NCBI RefSeq assembly: GCF_014698145.1
Contig: NZ_JACJSM010000001.1
Span: 1 to 24,632, forward strand
Length of the DNA stretch: 24,632 nt
DNA from: Oscillatoria sp. FACHB-1406
Lineage (GTDB): Bacteria > Cyanobacteriota > Cyanobacteriia > Cyanobacteriales > Spirulinaceae
Direction: 5' to 3'
The notes below the pieces were generated by a model that did no database searches, was not told the origin of the DNA, and saw nothing but the letters and a program-made list of their open reading frames with translations. Shown here in pieces: positions 4,842-22,086 of this stretch. Numbering within the stretch: position 1 is the first letter of the stretch; the number at the start of each line of letters is the position of its first letter. The translations under genes and the position numbers were made by a program.

Positions 4842-5125
4842 TGAATGGTGAATAAGGGAAAAGGGATAGCGATCACTCCCTCTCTCCTGCACCAGTCACC
4901 AGTAGCAAGACCCTCTCCCCCTCATCTCCTTCCGGATAGAATGCGGCTTTAATGTAGAGAACTATATTGCTTATCGGCTGCTGACGGGCTAACTGATAAC
5001 GTTCGACTGTTCTGCATCGCGATTGACGGATGACTCCTGATTGTTAACTGTATAACTGATAACTGTTAACACCTAGAGCTATAATCCTGGATGAGGATTG
5101 TGAAGTTAAATGAAGGGCAGCGATC

Positions 5126-6703
5126 TTGCGCTCTCCTGACCTGATGAGGGAGTGCAGCGCGAGGAAAAAGCCGCCGGAAACCGCCCTAAAATTTGTTGGA
5201 TGTGTGAGGTTAAATGTGAGAAATCAAACGGAAGCATTGCCGAGCAATGCAAGAAAGGATTCATCTAAACCCTTGCGTCAAACGCCTCCGAGCCTCGAGA
5301 GCGAAAGCCTTTTGAGTCCGACAGTTCCCAAGCGTCGATCGCGTCTGACTCTCTTCAATATCTTGATGCAGAAGCGAATTTGGCTGTGGAGTAGTACCTT
5401 TGCGATCGCGGTAGGGATTTCTGCGGTATCAGGGGCTGCGATCGGATTATTTGCACCGATTCCCAAAAGCTTCGCCCATTTCGTACCGGGATCGGAAACG
5501 AGCGCCGACGGTAAAGTTCTGGAACATCAAAAACTGTGGGACTTTTTCTTACGTTACGAACTCGATCGCCCCGTTAACATTTTAGTATTGGGGATCGATC
5601 GCGTCCTTGATGCCCAGCCCGGTTCTAAAGAAGCGTTCGACGGTCACAGCGATACGATGTTACTGTTGCGCTTCGACCCCGAAAAGCACGTTCTCCAAAT
5701 GCTCTCCATTCCTCGCGATACGCGCGTGCTTATCCCTGGAGAAGGCATGGTGAAAATCAACGATGCTAATTTCTCTGGCGGTGCCAAACGTGCTACGGAA
5801 GTTGTGAGCGAAACTCTCAATGATATTCCGATCGATCGCTACGTCCGAATTACTAACGATGCGTTTCGCGAACTGGTGGATCTCGTCGGCGGGATTGAAG
5901 TCAATGTTCCCCACGCTATGCAATACCGGGATGAAACACAGCAACTCAATATTAACCTCGCACCCGGACGACAAATTTTAAACGGCGATCGCGCCGAACA
6001 GTTCGCCCGCTTCCGTAAGGATAGTTACGGCGATATCGGGCGCATTCAACGCCAGCAAATTCTGCTCAAAGCACTGCGGGAACGCCTGCAAAGTCCGGCA
6101 ACGTTGCCCCGCCTCCCGCAAGCCGTACAGATGATGCGGCAGTACGTCGATACAAACCTCAGTTGGGAAGAAACGCTCGCGTTAGTCGGTTTTGGGTTGA
6201 AGCTGGAAAAAGAACAAATTAAAATGGTCATGCTGCCCGGTCGGTTCAGCGAGAAGAATGAATTTAATGGCGTGAGCTATTGGTTGATGTCGGAGCGAGA
6301 ACGCGATCGCATCCTTCGTAACAACTTCGACCAACCCGTACCGGGCGAGGAAACCACGAGCGAAAAGACTGAAGCTTCGGAATCGGAGCAAGTCAAACCG
6401 TTACGCGCCCGCATTGCTATCCAAAACACCACCGCCGATCCCGCTGTCGCCGAGCGAGTTCTCGAATATCTTCAAGCTCGCGACATTCGTAACGCTTATA
6501 TCTCCGAGCGCCCCGCCCCGCAAGTCCTCGAACAAACCGAAATTATCGTGCAACAAGGCGATCGCGAAACAGCGAAGCGCTTGCACGCCCTCTTAGGTTT
6601 TGGCAGCATCGAAGACGATTCAACCGGCGATATTGGTTCTCAGTTGACGCTGCGCGTGGGAAGCGATTGGTTGCCAAAACTGGAAGCAGAACCAAGGAAG
6701 TAG
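5126..6703 (+). CDS. LytR-CpsA-Psr (LCP) family cell-envelope protein with a C-terminal LytR_C domain. The N-terminus is uncertain; ATG at 5366 (MQKRIWLW, just before the TM helix) is an alternative start.
   Basis: LCP core: LVLGIDRV ... GHSDTMLLLRFDP ... LSIPRDTRV ... GGAKRATEVVSETLNDIPIDRYVRI ... LNGDRAEQFARFRKDSYGDIGRIQRQQ. A TATAAT box lies at 5079-5084. Confidence 0.8.
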   Translation: MRSPDLMRECSARKKPPETALKFVGCVRLNVRNQTEALPSNARKDSSKPLRQTPPSLESESLLSPTVPKRRSRLTLFNILMQKRIWLWSSTFAIAVGISAVSGAAIGLFAPIPKSFAHFVPGSETSADGKVLEHQKLWDFFLRYELDRPVNILVLGIDRVLDAQPGSKEAFDGHSDTMLLLRFDPEKHVLQMLSIPRDTRVLIPGEGMVKINDANFSGGAKRATEVVSETLNDIPIDRYVRITNDAFRELVDLVGGIEVNVPHAMQYRDETQQLNINLAPGRQILNGDRAEQFARFRKDSYGDIGRIQRQQILLKALRERLQSPATLPRLPQAVQMMRQYVDTNLSWEETLALVGFGLKLEKEQIKMVMLPGRFSEKNEFNGVSYWLMSERERDRILRNNFDQPVPGEETTSEKTEASESEQVKPLRARIAIQNTTADPAVAERVLEYLQARDIRNAYISERPAPQVLEQTEIIVQQGDRETAKRLHALLGFGSIEDDSTGDIGSQLTLRVGSDWLPKLEAEPRK

Positions 6704-6790
6704 TTTGTAATTCGTAATTCGTAGTTCGTAATTCGTAATTCGTAATTCGTAATTCGGATTTCATAACTCATAATTCATCATTCATAACTC
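6700..6790. repeat. Heptanucleotide tandem array, 12-13 units. GTAATTC occurs 6 times plus the variant GTAGTTC, then degenerate units GGATTTC, ATAACTC, ATAATTC, ATCATTC, ATAACTC. It starts at the LCP stop codon and ends 19 nt before the ATG of the pentapeptide gene.
   Basis: Units delineated by hand from 6707 in exact 7-nt register. It resembles cyanobacterial STRR-type heptamer repeats but does not match STRR1-3 consensus sequences. Confidence 0.9.
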
Positions 6791-6808
6791 ATCTGTTGAA
6801 ACGAGAAA

Positions 6809-14011: not shown

Positions 14012-14016
14012 GATCG

Positions 14017-14163
14017 TTAACTCACCGCAAATCCTGTATAGGGACGAACAAAAGGTTCTTGAAATCCTAAAACAATATCCTCTTTCGGAACGCCGAGTTT
14101 AACTAATTCATCTGCCATCTCAATTTCAGTTCCATCGTGCTGCACCCAAATCTTACCATTTTT
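14017..14163 (-). pseudogene. Remnant of an XisI-like gene, C-terminal ~47 codons only: KNGKIWVQHDGTEIEMADELVKLGVPKEDIVLGFQEPFVRPYTGFAVS-stop. It lies in the same frame directly after the permease TAG stop.
   Basis: My own translation of the minus strand. The motifs GKIWxQHDGTE ... ELVxxGVPKEDIVLGF ... P ... R ... TGFAV match the conserved C-terminus of XisI-family proteins as I remember it. The N-terminal ~65 codons are absent because the permease gene occupies that position. Confidence 0.45.
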
Positions 14164-16394: not shown

Positions 16395-17096
16395 TTAAAC
16401 CGCTAAGAAACGTTGAATCGTTTCTTGAGAGAGTTCGCTAGTTGCGCCGGAAGCAACGATACCGCCTTTTTGCATGGCGTAATACCAGTCCGCTTGGCGC
16501 ACGAAATGGAGGTGTTGTTCGACGAGTAAAACAGAGATTCCGGTTGCTTCGATAATGCGTCGGACAGCGGCTTCAATTTCAAGAATAATCGAGGGTTGAA
16601 TCCCTTCGGTGGGTTCGTCGAGAACGAGAAGCTTGGGTTTCCCCATTAAAGCACGCGCGATCGCGAGTTGTTGTTGTTGTCCGCCGCTCAAATCGCCGCC
16701 CATCCGCGATAGCATTGTTTTCAACACCGGAAACAGCGTAAAAATCTCTTCTGGAATATCTTTTTTCCCCTGTCTTCCTTTCGGTAATGCTTCCAAACCC
16801 AGCAACAAATTTTCGCGAACCGTGGCGCGGGGAATAACTTCTCTTCCTTGGGGAACGTAACCGATTCCGGAGCGCGCGCGGCGATCTGGGCTATCTTTTA
16901 AGAGGGAGCGATCGTAAAAAACAATATTACCAGTACGCGGCTGAAGTAAGCCCATAATTGTTTTTAAGAGTGTCGTTTTTCCGACTCCATTTCTCCCGAT
17001 TAAGCAAACCATTTGTCCCGGCGGAACAGCCATATCGACACTGCGAAGAATATGACTTTCGCCGTAATAAACATTGAGGTTAGAAACTTGTAACAT
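16395..17096 (-). CDS. urtE: Urea ABC transporter ATP-binding protein UrtE (LivF-like).
   Basis: Walker A GRNGVGKT, signature LSGGQQQ, Walker B LLVLDEP. It is the last gene of the urtABCDE order. Confidence 0.8.
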   Translation of the reverse strand: MLQVSNLNVYYGESHILRSVDMAVPPGQMVCLIGRNGVGKTTLLKTIMGLLQPRTGNIVFYDRSLLKDSPDRRARSGIGYVPQGREVIPRATVRENLLLGLEALPKGRQGKKDIPEEIFTLFPVLKTMLSRMGGDLSGGQQQQLAIARALMGKPKLLVLDEPTEGIQPSIILEIEAAVRRIIEATGISVLLVEQHLHFVRQADWYYAMQKGGIVASGATSELSQETIQRFLAV

Positions 17097-17123
17097 TTAT
17101 TTGAGTGATTAGTTATTAGAGAG

Positions 17124-17227
17124 AGCGGAAATCTGTAATTCGTTGTCAATTATCCATTTGCTCTGGCGGAACAGCCATATCGACACTGCGAAGAAGCGGG
17201 AATCCGTAATTCGTTATCAATTATCAA
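17124..17227. repeat. Two ~33-bp direct repeats bracket a 42-bp duplicate of part of the urtE coding region. R1 (17124-17156) is AGCGGAAATCTGTAATTCGTTGTCAATTATCCA. R2 (17195-17227) is AGCGGGAATCCGTAATTCGTTATCAATTATCAA. The duplicated segment is 17154-17195 and copies 17009-17050 (urtE codons 16-30).
   Basis: Read directly. R1 and R2 differ at 4 of 33 positions. The duplicated segment differs from its source at 3 of 42 positions, with the last 31 nt identical. R2 ends at the urtD stop codon. Confidence 0.8.
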
Positions 17228-17974
17228 TTAACTTTCTTCACTGCCTAAATAAACTTCAATCACGCGCGGATCTTGCTGTACTTCATCCATCGTGCCTTCA
17301 CACAGAACGGAACCTTGATGTAATACAGTTACTTTACGAGCGATTTGGCGCACGAACTCCATATCGTGTTCGATCACGATAATTGAATGACTTTCCGCCA
17401 GCGCAATTAATAAAGCCCCTACGTTTTCTGTTTCCTCGTCGGTTAATCCGGCAACGGGTTCATCAACTAACAGTAATTGCGGCGATTGTGCGACTAACAT
17501 TCCGATTTCCAAGCGCTGTTTTTCGCCGTGGGAAAGGAGGGCAGCTTGTAAGTCGGCTTTCGCGGCTAAACCAATCGTTTCAAGGAGTCCGATAACGTGG
17601 CGGCGATCGCTTTCTCTCGGCTGGGCAAAGAGCGTGCTTAACACATTTTTGTTGCGATTGCAAGCCAAGTCTAAATTTTCGCGCACGGTGAGATTGAGAT
17701 AGACTCGCGGGGTTTGAAATTTACGACCAACTCCGAGGCGGGCAACTTGATGTTCGGACAATTTTCGCAAGTCTCGCCCGTCAAATCTAACCTGTCCTTC
17801 CGTGGGTTTGGTTTTGCCGGTAATGACATCGAGAAAGGTCGTTTTTCCCGCACCGTTGGGGCCGATAATCGTGCGGAGTTCGCCCGCATCCATACTGAAG
17901 TTAAGGTTATTGATGGCTTTAAATCCATCAAAGTTAACGGTGAGATTATCGATTTCGAGAATTTTTGAGGTCAT
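17228..17974 (-). CDS. urtD: Urea ABC transporter ATP-binding protein UrtD (LivG-like). The true start is the ATG of MTSKILEIDNL. The listed ORF runs 35 codons further upstream, to a TTG at 18079.
   Basis: Walker A GPNGAGKTT, signature LSHGEKQRL, Walker B LLLVDEP. An AAAGGATAATAATG ribosome-binding context precedes the start. Confidence 0.8.
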   Translation of the reverse strand: MTSKILEIDNLTVNFDGFKAINNLNFSMDAGELRTIIGPNGAGKTTFLDVITGKTKPTEGQVRFDGRDLRKLSEHQVARLGVGRKFQTPRVYLNLTVRENLDLACNRNKNVLSTLFAQPRESDRRHVIGLLETIGLAAKADLQAALLSHGEKQRLEIGMLVAQSPQLLLVDEPVAGLTDEETENVGALLIALAESHSIIVIEHDMEFVRQIARKVTVLHQGSVLCEGTMDEVQQDPRVIEVYLGSEES

Positions 17975-18068
17975 TATTATCCTTTCATTATTAATGGGGA
18001 GGGCAGGTTTGAAGACAGAGGATTGCTGTAATAGCAAGGGTTTTTGGGGAAACCTGCCCCTACAATAC

Positions 18069-19217
18069 TTATCTCTCAAATTCTTCCCGTTCTTGTTGCA
18101 CTTCTGGATTTTCTTCGAGTTGGGGATAGGTGATGAGTTTTGGACGCAAGAAGGGAAGCGATCGCGCGTATTTCAGCAGTCCCATTAAACCATCGGGTAG
18201 GACGGTGACAACGATGAGAAAAAGCGCGCCTTGAAAGAATGTCCAAACGGCGGGATATTCTTCGCTTAAAAAGGTTTGAGCGAAGTTAACTAAGAGAGTG
18301 CCAATAATTGCCCCAACCAGCGTTCCGCGCCCCCCCACAGCCACCCAAATGACCATTTCGATTGAAAAAGCCACTTCCATTGCGTTGGGCGTAATAATGC
18401 CGGTTTGCGGCACGTAAAGCGCTCCAGCTAATCCAGCGATCGCGCCAGAAATGGCAAAGACTAAGACTTTAAACCAAGTCGGATCGTAGCCGGAAAAACG
18501 AACCCGCGTTTCGTCGTCGCGAATGGCAACGAGTAAGCGCCCGAAACGCCCGCTAGTAAGCCAGCGACAGAGGGCGTAAGTGAGGACGAGGAAGAGAATG
18601 GTAAGGATGTAAAAAGTGAGTTGGGCGCGATCGGAACTCACCACCATCCCGAAGATGACATCTTTATCGGTTTTTAAGCCGTTTGTGCCGTTAATTAATT
18701 TTTGTTGGCCGTTGAAGAAATTGAAAAAGACAAGCAGCGCGGCTTGAGTGAGAATGGAGAAGTAAACGCCGCGAATGCGATTGCGAAAGACGAGATATCC
18801 GAGTAGTCCGGCGACGATCGCGGGAATCACAAAAATCGCGATCGCGGTGAAGGGAAAAGAATAAAACGGTCGCCAAAATCCCGGCAGTTCCGATACGCCG
18901 TAAAGGGAGAAAAAGTCGGGAACGGGCGCTTCCGGGCCATTGAGTTTGAGATACATCGCGATCGCGTATCCCCCTAGGGCAAAGAATATCCCGTGTCCCA
19001 AACTCAACAATCCGGTATAACCCCAGATTAAATCGATCCCTAAAGCCGCGATCGCCAATGCCAAAAATCGACCCAAAAGTTTAAGCCGAAAAGCCGGAAT
19101 CAGTAGGGGCATAATGACCGCGAGGAACAAAACAATCCCAGCAATAATCCCCGCTTCTTTAAGAAGCGCCCGATCGAGCTTAAGTTTAGATTTAGGAAGT
19201 TCGCTTTTCGATTTCAT
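18069..19217 (-). CDS. urtC: Urea ABC transporter permease UrtC (LivM-like).
   Basis: About 10 TM segments of a LivM-type permease, with an N-terminal basic cytoplasmic tail MKSKSELPKSKLKL. Confidence 0.8.
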   Translation of the reverse strand: MKSKSELPKSKLKLDRALLKEAGIIAGIVLFLAVIMPLLIPAFRLKLLGRFLALAIAALGIDLIWGYTGLLSLGHGIFFALGGYAIAMYLKLNGPEAPVPDFFSLYGVSELPGFWRPFYSFPFTAIAIFVIPAIVAGLLGYLVFRNRIRGVYFSILTQAALLVFFNFFNGQQKLINGTNGLKTDKDVIFGMVVSSDRAQLTFYILTILFLVLTYALCRWLTSGRFGRLLVAIRDDETRVRFSGYDPTWFKVLVFAISGAIAGLAGALYVPQTGIITPNAMEVAFSIEMVIWVAVGGRGTLVGAIIGTLLVNFAQTFLSEEYPAVWTFFQGALFLIVVTVLPDGLMGLLKYARSLPFLRPKLITYPQLEENPEVQQEREEFER

Positions 19218-19298: not shown

Positions 19299-20528
19299 TT
19301 AAATTTCTGCCGTTCTTCCTTTCGGGGCAAAAATTCCAGCGGGTTTAACTTGTAAGAAGGCAATAATTAAGGCGAAAACCAGCACTTTTGCCATACTGGT
19401 CGTCGAAAAGAATGTCAGAATTTCGGTGAGGGGCTTTAAGGCTTCAATCGGTTGAGAAAGCGTCACTAACGTTCCCGAACCAATCAGAAAAGAAACGGTT
19501 CCGATCGCCATTGCCGCTAAAATCGTCCCCAAGAGATTGCCTACGCCGCCGAGAACGACGACCATAAACGTATCGACGATGTAGTTTTGTCCGGTATTAG
19601 GGCCGACCGAACCCAACATCGCGATCGCGCAACCGGCAATTCCCGCCAATCCCGAACCGACTGCAAACGTCAGCGCGTCTACCTTAGCGGTCGGAATGCC
19701 CAAACAGGAACTCATGCTGCGATTTTGGGTGACGGCGCGAATTCGCAGCCCCCAATCGGTGTAGTTGAGGAAAAAGTAAGTCCCCAATACGCACAAAATC
19801 GTTAGCGCGATGATAAATAAGCGGGTGCGGGGTAGCGGAAAACTTTCGGCCCCCAGCGGGAATTTTATCGGTTCCTGCAATAACCAATTCGGGGCAGTCA
19901 CATCGACGTTTCGCGCGCTGAACCAGGGCTTGACAAAAAAGTCTTTTTTTGTATTCGCCATTAATAAACCCGCGACGAAGGTAATTGCGCCGCTGATTGC
20001 GACATTCGCCGGGATCGCCCAACGCGGGACGACAATGGGATTGCGTCGCAGTACGGTCAGCGCGCCAAAAAAGAGGAGACAGAATAGCGCGATCGCGATC
20101 GCCAGCAAAGTATTTATACTTCGCACCAACTCGCGCAAAATCAAACTTACGCCCCAAGTCGCCAACAGCGTTTCCAGCGGTCTTCCGTACAAAAAGCGGA
20201 TTGCACCTCGTTCCAAGGCTAAACCCACTAATCCCGCCACAATAAACGCCGCAATTAACGCATAAAAAATATACATTTCGCGACTGACAACAAACGCGAT
20301 CGCGTTCCCCAAAAATCCCGCTTCCGCTGTCGGTTTAAACTCCGGTAAGATCGCCTTAGCAATATTCTGCACCACAAACGTGGTATACGCTCCCAGCATC
20401 ATCAATTCCCCGTGAGCGAGATTAATCACGCCCATCAACCCAAAGACAATTGCCAGTCCTAATGCCGACAACAAAAGGACAGAACCGATACTAATCCCAT
20501 CAAAAATACTTTGAAGAAGTTGCAGCAC
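19299..20528 (-). CDS. urtB: Urea ABC transporter permease UrtB (LivH-like). GTG at 20528 gives MLQLLQSIFDGISIGS, the typical UrtB N-terminus. The listed TTG at 20558 is 10 codons upstream.
   Basis: LivH-type permease with the long periplasmic/cytoplasmic insert typical of UrtB. It is the first gene downstream of urtA. Confidence 0.8.
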   Translation of the reverse strand: MLQLLQSIFDGISIGSVLLLSALGLAIVFGLMGVINLAHGELMMLGAYTTFVVQNIAKAILPEFKPTAEAGFLGNAIAFVVSREMYIFYALIAAFIVAGLVGLALERGAIRFLYGRPLETLLATWGVSLILRELVRSINTLLAIAIALFCLLFFGALTVLRRNPIVVPRWAIPANVAISGAITFVAGLLMANTKKDFFVKPWFSARNVDVTAPNWLLQEPIKFPLGAESFPLPRTRLFIIALTILCVLGTYFFLNYTDWGLRIRAVTQNRSMSSCLGIPTAKVDALTFAVGSGLAGIAGCAIAMLGSVGPNTGQNYIVDTFMVVVLGGVGNLLGTILAAMAIGTVSFLIGSGTLVTLSQPIEALKPLTEILTFFSTTSMAKVLVFALIIAFLQVKPAGIFAPKGRTAEI

Positions 20529-20636
20529 GATAATTCGGAGATAGAGATAAGCGAGCAATAATCGGTGTTAGATAGCGAAAGTTGGCAAGTAAGCCATTGA
20601 TGTCAAAATCCAGGAGTCGAGCAACTCTTTAGAAAA

Positions 20637-20751: not shown

Positions 20752-22086
20752 TTAACTCACTTTATACTTACCGCCTTTCTTCGGATCGGTCCAATCGCAA
20801 CCAAAACCCTTCGTATCCGGAACGAATTGGTTCCAAGGCTGCGGTTCTAAGGGGGCATCGGTAGACCAAACAATCTTAAAGAGTCCATCGTCTTGGACTT
20901 CGCCGATGCGAACCGTCTTAGAAATATGATGGTTCGGGAACATTTTAACCTTGCCTTCCGGAGCCGCCAATTCTTGACCGACTGCCGCCGCGCGAACTTT
21001 TTCTAAATCGTCTGCCGTTCCGGCTTTTTCGACCGCTTGTTTCCACAGATAAACCATGATATAAGCCGCTTCCATCGGGTCGTTCGTTACGCGATCCGCG
21101 CCGTACTTCGCCTTAAACGCTTCCACAAACTTCTTGTTTTCCGGCGTATCGACGGTTTGGAAATAATTCCAAGATGCGTAATGTCCTTTGAGGAATTCAG
21201 TCCCGATCTGACGAACTTCTTCTTCGGCTACGCTAACGGACATAACCGGATATTTCTCGGGTGTAATCCCCGCGCCCTTCAGTTGTTTGAAGAATGCGAC
21301 GTTGCTATCGCCGTTGAGGGTGTTGAAAATAACGCCGCCGTCGGGCAACGCTTGACGAATTTTTGTGATAATCGGCGTAACTTCGGTATTTCCTAAAGGC
21401 AAGTAATCTTCCCCAACGGTTTCGCCGCCTTTGGCTTTGAGTTGTTCTTTGATAATCGTATTAGCCGTGCGCGGGAAAACGTAATCGGAGCCGACTAAGA
21501 AGAACTTTTTACCTTTATTTTTAAGCAACCAATCGACAGCCGGTTCGATCTGTTGGTTGGGTGCTGCACCGGTATAGAAGACGTTCTTAGAACATTCTTG
21601 ACCTTCGTATTGAACGGGATACCATAACATATGGTTTTTCGACTCGAAGGTGTCGAGAACGGCTTTGCGGCTAGCAGAAGTCCAACATCCAAAGATGGTA
21701 ACAACTTTATCTTTATCGATAAGTTTTTCAGCTTTTTCTTTGAAAACATCCCAATCGGAAGCACCATCTTCTTTAATGGGTTCGATTTGTTTGCCCAGAA
21801 CGCCGCCTGCTTTGTTGATTTCTTCGATCGCGAGCATTTCGGCATCAACGACTGTAGTTTCACTAATCGCCATCGTACCGCTCAGCGAGTGAAGAATTCC
21901 GACTTTAATCGTATTGCCGCTGCCTGCGGCGACGGGTGTTGAAGCACTCGTCGGACTTTCCGCTGCGCTCGGGCTGGCAGTGGGCGCTGTGGTTTGGGAT
22001 TGCCCACAACCTTTAAGTAAAATGCTAGTTCCTAATGCTGCCGAACCGTAGAGTAAGAATTTTCTTCTTCCAAATTGCCTTGCCAT
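20752..22086 (-). CDS. urtA: Urea-binding periplasmic lipoprotein UrtA.
   Basis: Signal peptide [27 protein letters not shown] with a lipobox Cys. The UrtA-type block [40 protein letters not shown]. The C-terminus [11 protein letters not shown]. Confidence 0.8.

Follow-up and report, generated by a model that had tools for sequence, protein, structure and literature searches.

A repeat-flanked copy of a urtE segment in the urtD–urtE spacer of a cyanobacterial urea-transporter operon is probably a lineage-specific scar at a decayed heptamer tract

Our analysis of the spacer between the urea-transporter genes urtD and urtE reveals that it contains a near-exact copy (X′) of codons 16–30 of the adjacent urtE gene (X), and that the copy is flanked on each side by a direct repeat of heptamer-tract character (R; copy R2 adjoins urtD, and copy R1 lies on the urtE side). 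The R1-X′-R2 feature is real and statistically certain. The arrangement is probably a neutral, lineage-specific scar of a duplication or templated insertion at a decayed heptamer tract, having no function of its own.

The window (the whole stretch of DNA analysed, 24.6 kb) contains a complete urtABCDE urea ABC-transporter operon, all of it on the minus strand. The gene names assigned in the initial annotation are right, with UrtA, UrtB, UrtC, UrtD, and UrtE all matching NCBIfam equivalog models above the curated cutoffs (Table 1). UrtE of the window is 100% identical to UrtE of Oscillatoria sp. FACHB-1406, which the taxonomy record places in the Oscillatoriales. The urtD–urtE spacer comprises 131 nt (17097–17227). 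The products of the other ORFs have housekeeping or signalling roles; the ORFs of the 24.6-kb window include no gene for a Cas protein, a reverse transcriptase, or a transposase. Three further observations concern individual elements of the window. The match of the UrtB ORF (419 aa when read from the farthest start) to its equivalog model falls into two stretches, which suggests an insertion within the permease relative to that model. A CheB-methylesterase ORF (2117–2962) matches only positions 42–173 of its Pfam model, from residue 3, and may have an N-terminal truncation or a mis-called start. An imperfect inverted repeat (83–147; 31-nt arms, 77% complementary, 3-nt loop) is located upstream of the first histidine-kinase ORF.

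Table 1. Positions of the urt genes, of the elements of the urtD–urtE spacer, and of the tandem heptamer array in the window
Feature	Coordinates	Strand	Basis or remark
urtA	20752–22086	minus	above curated NCBIfam equivalog cutoff
urtB	19299–20558	minus	above curated NCBIfam equivalog cutoff
urtC	18069–19217	minus	above curated NCBIfam equivalog cutoff
urtD, urea ABC transporter ATP-binding protein	17228–17974	minus	TIGR03411, 378.6 bits versus cutoff 304.1
R2, heptamer-derived repeat adjoining urtD	17195–17229	minus	repeat search; strict duplicated unit 17195–17225
X′, copy of urtE codons 16–30 (39/42)	17154–17195	minus	repeat search, alignment
Mini-ORF MAVPPEQMDN*	17146–17178	minus	translation
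R1, repeat copy on the urtE side	17124–17158	minus	strict unit 17124–17154; downstream flank TCCGCTCTCT
Remaining ancestral spacer = urtE untranslated leader, CTCTCTAATAACTAATCACTCAAATAA	17097–17123	minus	18/23 identical to L001
urtE, urea ABC transporter ATP-binding subunit	16395–17096	minus	TIGR03410, 323.7 bits versus cutoff 285.8
X, source segment in urtE, codons 16–30, ILRSVDMAVPPGQMV	17009–17050	minus	repeat search, alignment
Tandem heptamer array, (GTAATTC)n, then ATAACTC/ATAATTC variants	6700–6792	plus	lag-7 identity 0.84

The repeat search defines R1 and R2 as direct repeats of 35 nt that are identical at 31 of 35 positions and are spaced 71 nt from start to start. The strict R unit comprises 31 nt, of which 28 are identical between the two copies (E = 9.9e-06), and the last 2 nt of the 35-nt register of R2 overlap the urtD stop codon, TAA. 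X and X′ are each 42 nt in length and are spaced 145 nt apart, with a gap of 103 nt between them; they have in common an exact 31-mer (17020–17050 = 17165–17195; blastn-short E = 6.8e-13 versus the window), and no other non-tandem direct repeat in the window is as long. X corresponds to nucleotides 47–88 of the urtE coding sequence and has the same orientation as X′. At the junctions X′ has 1 nt in common with each flanking repeat, and each junction, read in gene orientation, contains one ambiguous base (CCCGC[T]TCTTCGC from R2 to X′, and CAAAT[G]GATAATTG from X′ to R1).

These measurements bear out what the initial annotation had described from the letters: two direct repeats around a near-exact copy of urtE codons 16–30, a source about 100 bp away in the same orientation as the copy, and a tiny minus-strand ORF, MAVPPEQMDN, between urtD and urtE. 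A 25-nt consensus of R from the same annotation occurs in the window, with up to 3 mismatches allowed, at the R1 and R2 sites only, and was matched in 0/100 shuffles. An assembly artefact is not plausible, because the paralogous copies have diverged from each other and differ at 6 positions.

R is best described as a short, decayed, STRR-like heptamer tract, which extends into the urtD stop codon. Specifically, R on the plus strand parses as GGAATCC, GTAATTC, GTTATCA, ATTATCA, and ATTAACT, with a lag-7 identity of 0.57 for R1, 0.66 for R2 (with flank), and 0.69 for the corresponding R of a relative (L001, described below). At other lags, except for lag 14, the identity is roughly 0.1–0.4. Shuffled sequences reached the lag-7 value in 5/20000 cases for R1 and in 0/20000 cases for R2. 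Along with this 7-nt periodicity, R has an intergenic location and a unit that recurs in the window, in a clean tandem array (Table 1; sequence GTAATTCGTA) that comprises ~8 GTAATTC/GTAGTTC units and is intergenic between a LytR-family gene and a pentapeptide-repeat gene. The array is not part of the rearrangement, and it uses the same heptamer vocabulary as R; the two have GTAATTC plus 2–3 bases in common (10-mers CGTAATTCGT and TGTAATTCGT). The initial annotation had stated that the repeats and the array at 6700–6790 contain the same core. The statement holds for the heptamer GTAATTC and for the 7-nt periodicity of R, but the core quoted there, GTAATTCGTT, is absent from the array and occurs in the window in R1 and R2 only.

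Filamentous cyanobacteria often carry heptamer tracts in their intergenic DNA, and these tracts have been implicated in polymerase slippage (PMC2670836, PMC4692102); 7-bp STRRs between the genes of operons have been described in these organisms (PMC2670836). The urtD stop codon of a more distant relative (L002, UrtE 88% identical, MAG GCA_034189065.1) is also located in a lag-7 tract (4871–4905; TAATGAG, TAATGAA, TAATGAC), for which 12/20000 shuffles reached the observed value. This second tract at the urtD stop codon suggests that the heptamer tract there may be old and may have been evolving by slippage.

Comparison of the spacer with that of a related strain, which the initial annotation had proposed as a check, reveals a single copy of R and no X′. 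A protein search yielded one close relative only (L001; P0002, UrtE 98% identical in amino-acid sequence, 5.2-kb contig, run SRR21279718). The nucleotide identity between L001 and the window is 88% over 4.7 kb and 91% over the 3′ end of urtD; the divergence at 4-fold sites is 27–31%; and the intergenic identity is 67–88%, or 81% pooled (~19% divergence). The urtD–urtE spacer of L001 contains a single R directly after the urtD stop codon and contains no urtE fragment. In alignment A2, the upstream flank and 27-nt R core of L001 are identical to those of R2, and the downstream flank of L001, TTCGATCTCT, corresponds to TCCGCTCTCT after R1; the R1 downstream flank is orthologous to the flank of the single R of L001. 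L001 and the window can also be aligned over the final ~20 nt upstream of the urtE ATG. The spacer of the window thus amounts to the single-R state plus 71 nt, consisting of ~40 nt of X′ and a second R of 31 nt. Because the L001 upstream flank leads to R2 and the L001 downstream flank leads to R1, we infer an in-situ duplication that brackets an insert. The single-R state appears to be ancestral, with one outgroup comparison, that with L001, as the basis.

X′ matches the urtE of its own genome rather than that of the relatives. In particular, in alignment A1, X′ and urtE of the window have T at column 11 and GCT at columns 27–29, whereas column 11 is G or C, and columns 27–29 are AGC, in L001, L002, and L014. 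The presence of window-specific urtE states in X′ argues that X′ was copied from the urtE of its own lineage after the split from L001. The relative thus has an unduplicated orthologous site, and the donor is nearby and of the same lineage; together with the continuity of the L001 flanks with R2 and R1, these observations strengthen the proposal, made in the initial annotation, of a duplication or recombination scar.

The copies have since diverged. The three clustered differences between X and X′ (CCGGGACAA versus CCAGAGCAA) are derived in X′, and the core of R1 has 2 derived transitions relative to R2 and L001. All six differences between paralogous copies are transitions (3/42 in X′, 7%; 3/31 between R1 and R2, 10%), and the copy divergence of 7–10% is well below the 27–31% neutral divergence between the window and L001. 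These values fit an event whose age is roughly one third to one half that of the L001 split, with neutral drift thereafter.

The reverse polarity is improbable. In that scenario, R-X′-R, or a larger partial duplication of urtE, would be ancestral, L001 would have lost it when one R copy recombined with the other, and gene conversion would have maintained the likeness of X′ to X in the window lineage. Deletion between direct repeats of 31–35 nt is easy, and L001 is clearly rearranged at the same spot, where it has a 143-nt insert. However, the derived, window-specific urtE states at 4 positions of X′ would require a later gene conversion over the 42-nt tract, and the copy divergence is lower than the neutral divergence between the genomes. 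Furthermore, relatives at 88% (L002/L003) and 85–87% (L011–L015), which are too diverged to align in the spacer, have short spacers with no urtE fragment. The same is found at greater distance: the urtD–urtE spacers of other cyanobacteria comprise 8–116 nt between the called genes (~41–116 nt to the conserved UrtE start), are unrelated in sequence, and contain no urtE fragment.

The alignment of L001 with the window breaks only in the urtD–urtE spacer, where positions 17120–17200 of the window (~81 nt) have no counterpart in L001, and positions 343–485 of L001 (143 nt) have no counterpart in the window. The other indels in the ~5 kb common to L001 and the window are 1–4 nt in length, except for one of 24–25 nt. 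The exception is an L001-only segment between the genes for a gamma-glutamyltranspeptidase and an ABC permease (window 14012–14163). The independent 143-nt insertion in L001, ~10 nt downstream, argues that the site beside the heptamer tract is, as judged from these alignments, a local hot spot for rearrangement. The 27-nt core of R2 is identical to L001 at 27/27 positions, versus a pooled intergenic identity of 81% (nominal P about 0.003); the 39-nt perfect run with L001 that contains the R2 core is only the 11th longest in 5 kb. These values give a weak hint that the original R tract, and not the duplication, may be constrained.

We infer the molecular route, and the neutrality of the product, as follows. 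The ancestral urtD–urtE spacer would have comprised ~60 nt: the stop codon of urtD, a single R in the form of a short, decayed heptamer tract, and a urtE leader of ~27 nt. After the split between the window and L001, a single local error of replication or repair would have placed 71 nt beside R, consisting of ~40 nt from urtE codons 16–30, 103 nt away, and a second R unit of 31 nt. That the donor is only 103 nt away speaks most strongly for such a local error. Two routes can be envisaged. In the first, serial template switching, synthesis would have jumped forward from the end of R to X, continued for 40 nt, and jumped back to the start of R. In the second, a tandem duplication of 145 nt (from R to X) would have been followed by an internal deletion of 74 nt, removing the duplicated leader and the first 15 codons. 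Both routes would give the same product. The redundant copies would since have drifted by point mutation, and the segment would be co-transcribed in the urtABCDE mRNA as additional untranslated spacer. Against this reading, the junctions have just 1 nt of microhomology on each side, short of what simple replication slippage typically shows, and the sizes (a duplication of 31–35 nt and an insert of 36–40 nt) resemble those of staggered-cut integration.

The initial annotation had also considered that a small repeat element might have taken up flanking DNA and left the structure as its footprint. In this scenario R would be a mobile or dispersed repeat of very small size, similar to an SDR or a MITE, the second copy of which carried or captured the adjacent urtE DNA. 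Small dispersed repeats within heptamer tracts are known in the Nostocaceae (Elhai et al. 2008, as reported in PMC5861425), and the spacers of the operon contain other small repeats. In particular, the urtC–urtD spacer (17975–18068, minus strand) contains a hairpin element that reads GTAGGGGCAGGTTT, ~46 nt, and AAACCTGCCC (stem of 11 bp, z −1.6), and the 16-mer AAACCTGCCCCTACAA of this hairpin recurs at the end of the 143-nt L001-only insert. The presence of the 16-mer in both places suggests a small dispersed palindromic repeat family in the genomes of the window and L001. The HIP1 octamer, GCGATCGC, is present 41 times in the window versus ~0.4 expected and accounts for most of the window's short dispersed "repeats".

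R itself shows no sign, in the sequences scanned, of being such an element. The 24.6-kb window and the 5.2-kb L001 contig contain no further R-like copy within 13/35 mismatches. A scan for the 20-nt core of R, AATTGAYAACGAATTACRGA, in GTDB species genomes, JGI metagenomes, and IMG/VR gave 1 match in genome contigs (a Pirellulales MAG), 6 in metagenome contigs, and 1 in viral contigs; judged by their unrelated flanks, all matches outside the window and L001 are chance matches. A distant-mode blastn search of plasmids with the spacer gave no match. R has no terminal inverted repeats, and the repeat search found no inverted repeat within the spacer, which thus has neither the inverted termini nor the hairpin of a MITE or SDR. 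The continuity of the R2 and R1 flanks with the single ancestral R points to duplication in situ and not to arrival from elsewhere, and SDRs are not found outside the Nostocaceae (PMC5861425). A mobile or dispersed element is therefore an unlikely origin for R, and this part of the initial annotation is not sustained.

A functional cis-element, namely an internal promoter, a leader peptide MAVPPEQMDN, or a decoy that resembles the 5′ region of urtE and is aimed at an antisense RNA or a regulatory protein, is very improbable, the scar being the preferred reading. R contains GATAAT in gene orientation, a promoter-like match on the gene strand (17247–17220) places its −10 hexamer in R2, and the core of R2 is fully conserved with L001. 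In addition, effects of heptamer tracts between the genes of operons on the stability of transcripts or on translational coupling have been proposed (PMC2670836). However, promoter-like sites are at chance level (3 found versus 2.3 expected), and the spacer folds no better than shuffles on either strand (z +0.40 and +0.30). No terminators were found. Rfam gave no match at gathering threshold over the window; on 16950–17350, with E values up to 10, it gave only weak, meaningless matches to PYLIS_6 and SNORD123 and no CRISPR-DR match. The mini-ORF has no Shine-Dalgarno-like sequence upstream and is absent from L001, the closest relative; it results incidentally from the urtE fragment, which is in frame, continuing into R1, and is probably not a gene. 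X′ and R1 have been gathering substitutions, with the three clustered changes altering the copied codons, and nothing comparable is present in other urtD–urtE spacers.

The initial annotation had further pointed out that the structure is formally a repeat-spacer-repeat unit with a self-matching spacer. As a description of geometry this is correct: CRISPR arrays have direct repeats of 23–47 nt and spacers of similar length, and the window has repeats of 31–35 nt, with 3–4 mismatches, around a single insert of 36–40 nt. No CRISPR feature beyond geometry was found. An ectopic, CRISPR-type integration ("neo-CRISPR"), in which Cas1-Cas2 would have acted at R as an off-target site, with staggered cuts, entry of ~40 nt of self DNA, and duplication of R by gap filling, is accordingly highly improbable. 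The single R in the relative and R-insert-R in the window agree with the geometry of such an event, as do the sizes of duplication and insert and the 1-nt overlap at each junction, and new arrays are reported to arise by off-target integration (Nivala et al. 2018, as presented in 10.1101/148544 and PMC6698737). Against this, a donor 103–145 nt away is very improbable for genome-wide sampling but is what a local copying error would naturally use; no cas gene is present in the 24.6-kb window; Rfam gives no match to a CRISPR direct-repeat or other family with E values up to 10; and only one "spacer" is present. We also take R, a non-palindromic, AT-rich heptamer tract, to lack the usual ends of a CRISPR repeat. 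In its more specific form, a natural birth of a neo-CRISPR, with Cas1-Cas2 acting on a non-CRISPR heptamer tract and a self fragment of ~40 nt supplied by local DNA damage, the scenario is extremely improbable; if it were true, the structure would preserve, within a housekeeping operon, the initial stage of de novo array formation. A diversity-generating retroelement was rejected: the window has no reverse transcriptase, the mismatches are not adenine-specific (1/3 at G of the putative template), and the segment in urtE retains the ancestral sequence unchanged and is located at codons 16–30, not at the 3′ end of a target gene.

Taken as a scar, R1-X′-R2 is ordinary and not a new genetic element, and it has little import for biology at large; only ectopic Cas1-Cas2 integration, in the unlikely case that it were true, would bear on how CRISPR arrays originate. 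The structure would nonetheless illustrate, cleanly and in a form that can be dated, how decayed heptamer tracts in the spacers of cyanobacterial operons act as hot spots for small structural mutations: two lineages have each been rearranged, independently, within ~10 nt of one and the same tract. It also serves as a warning that scars of this kind can mimic repeat-spacer-repeat units, tiny ORFs, and the footprints of mobile elements.

Among known systems, the cyanobacterial STRR heptamers resemble R in being 7-nt periodic and intergenic within an operon, and the unit GTAATTC is present in a clean array elsewhere in the window. R differs in being short (~5 units) and degenerate, and the period of the duplication is 71 nt and not 7 nt, such that the event was not a simple change in unit number. 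The classic STRR units of Mazel et al. 1990 are reportedly CCCCAGT, TTGGTCA, and CAACAGT, and R consists of none of these. The SDRs of the Nostocaceae, as described in reports of Elhai et al. 2008, are likewise very short, associated with heptamer tracts, and located in cyanobacterial intergenic DNA; R, however, has no dispersed copies in the sequences scanned, and SDRs occur only in the Nostocaceae (PMC5861425), whereas the host belongs to the Oscillatoriales. The neo-CRISPR of Nivala, Shipman and Church 2018, as outlined in accounts of that work, likewise converts a single sequence into two direct copies around a self insert of spacer size; here no cas genes are nearby, the sequence is not repeat-like, one unit is present, and the donor is ~100 nt away. 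Templated insertions and complex duplications, formed by serial replication slippage, by short-range template switching, or by tandem duplication and later deletion, likewise have a local donor (here at 103 nt) in the same orientation, a target duplicated around the insert, and minimal microhomology; their scars are likewise present in one lineage only, with copies that then decay neutrally. Template-switch models of this short-range kind have been described (PMC5453318, PMC7954356). Most documented short template switches occur within or between strands and yield inverted copies or mutation clusters, whereas here both jumps would have kept the orientation, giving a product that mimics a repeat-spacer-repeat unit.
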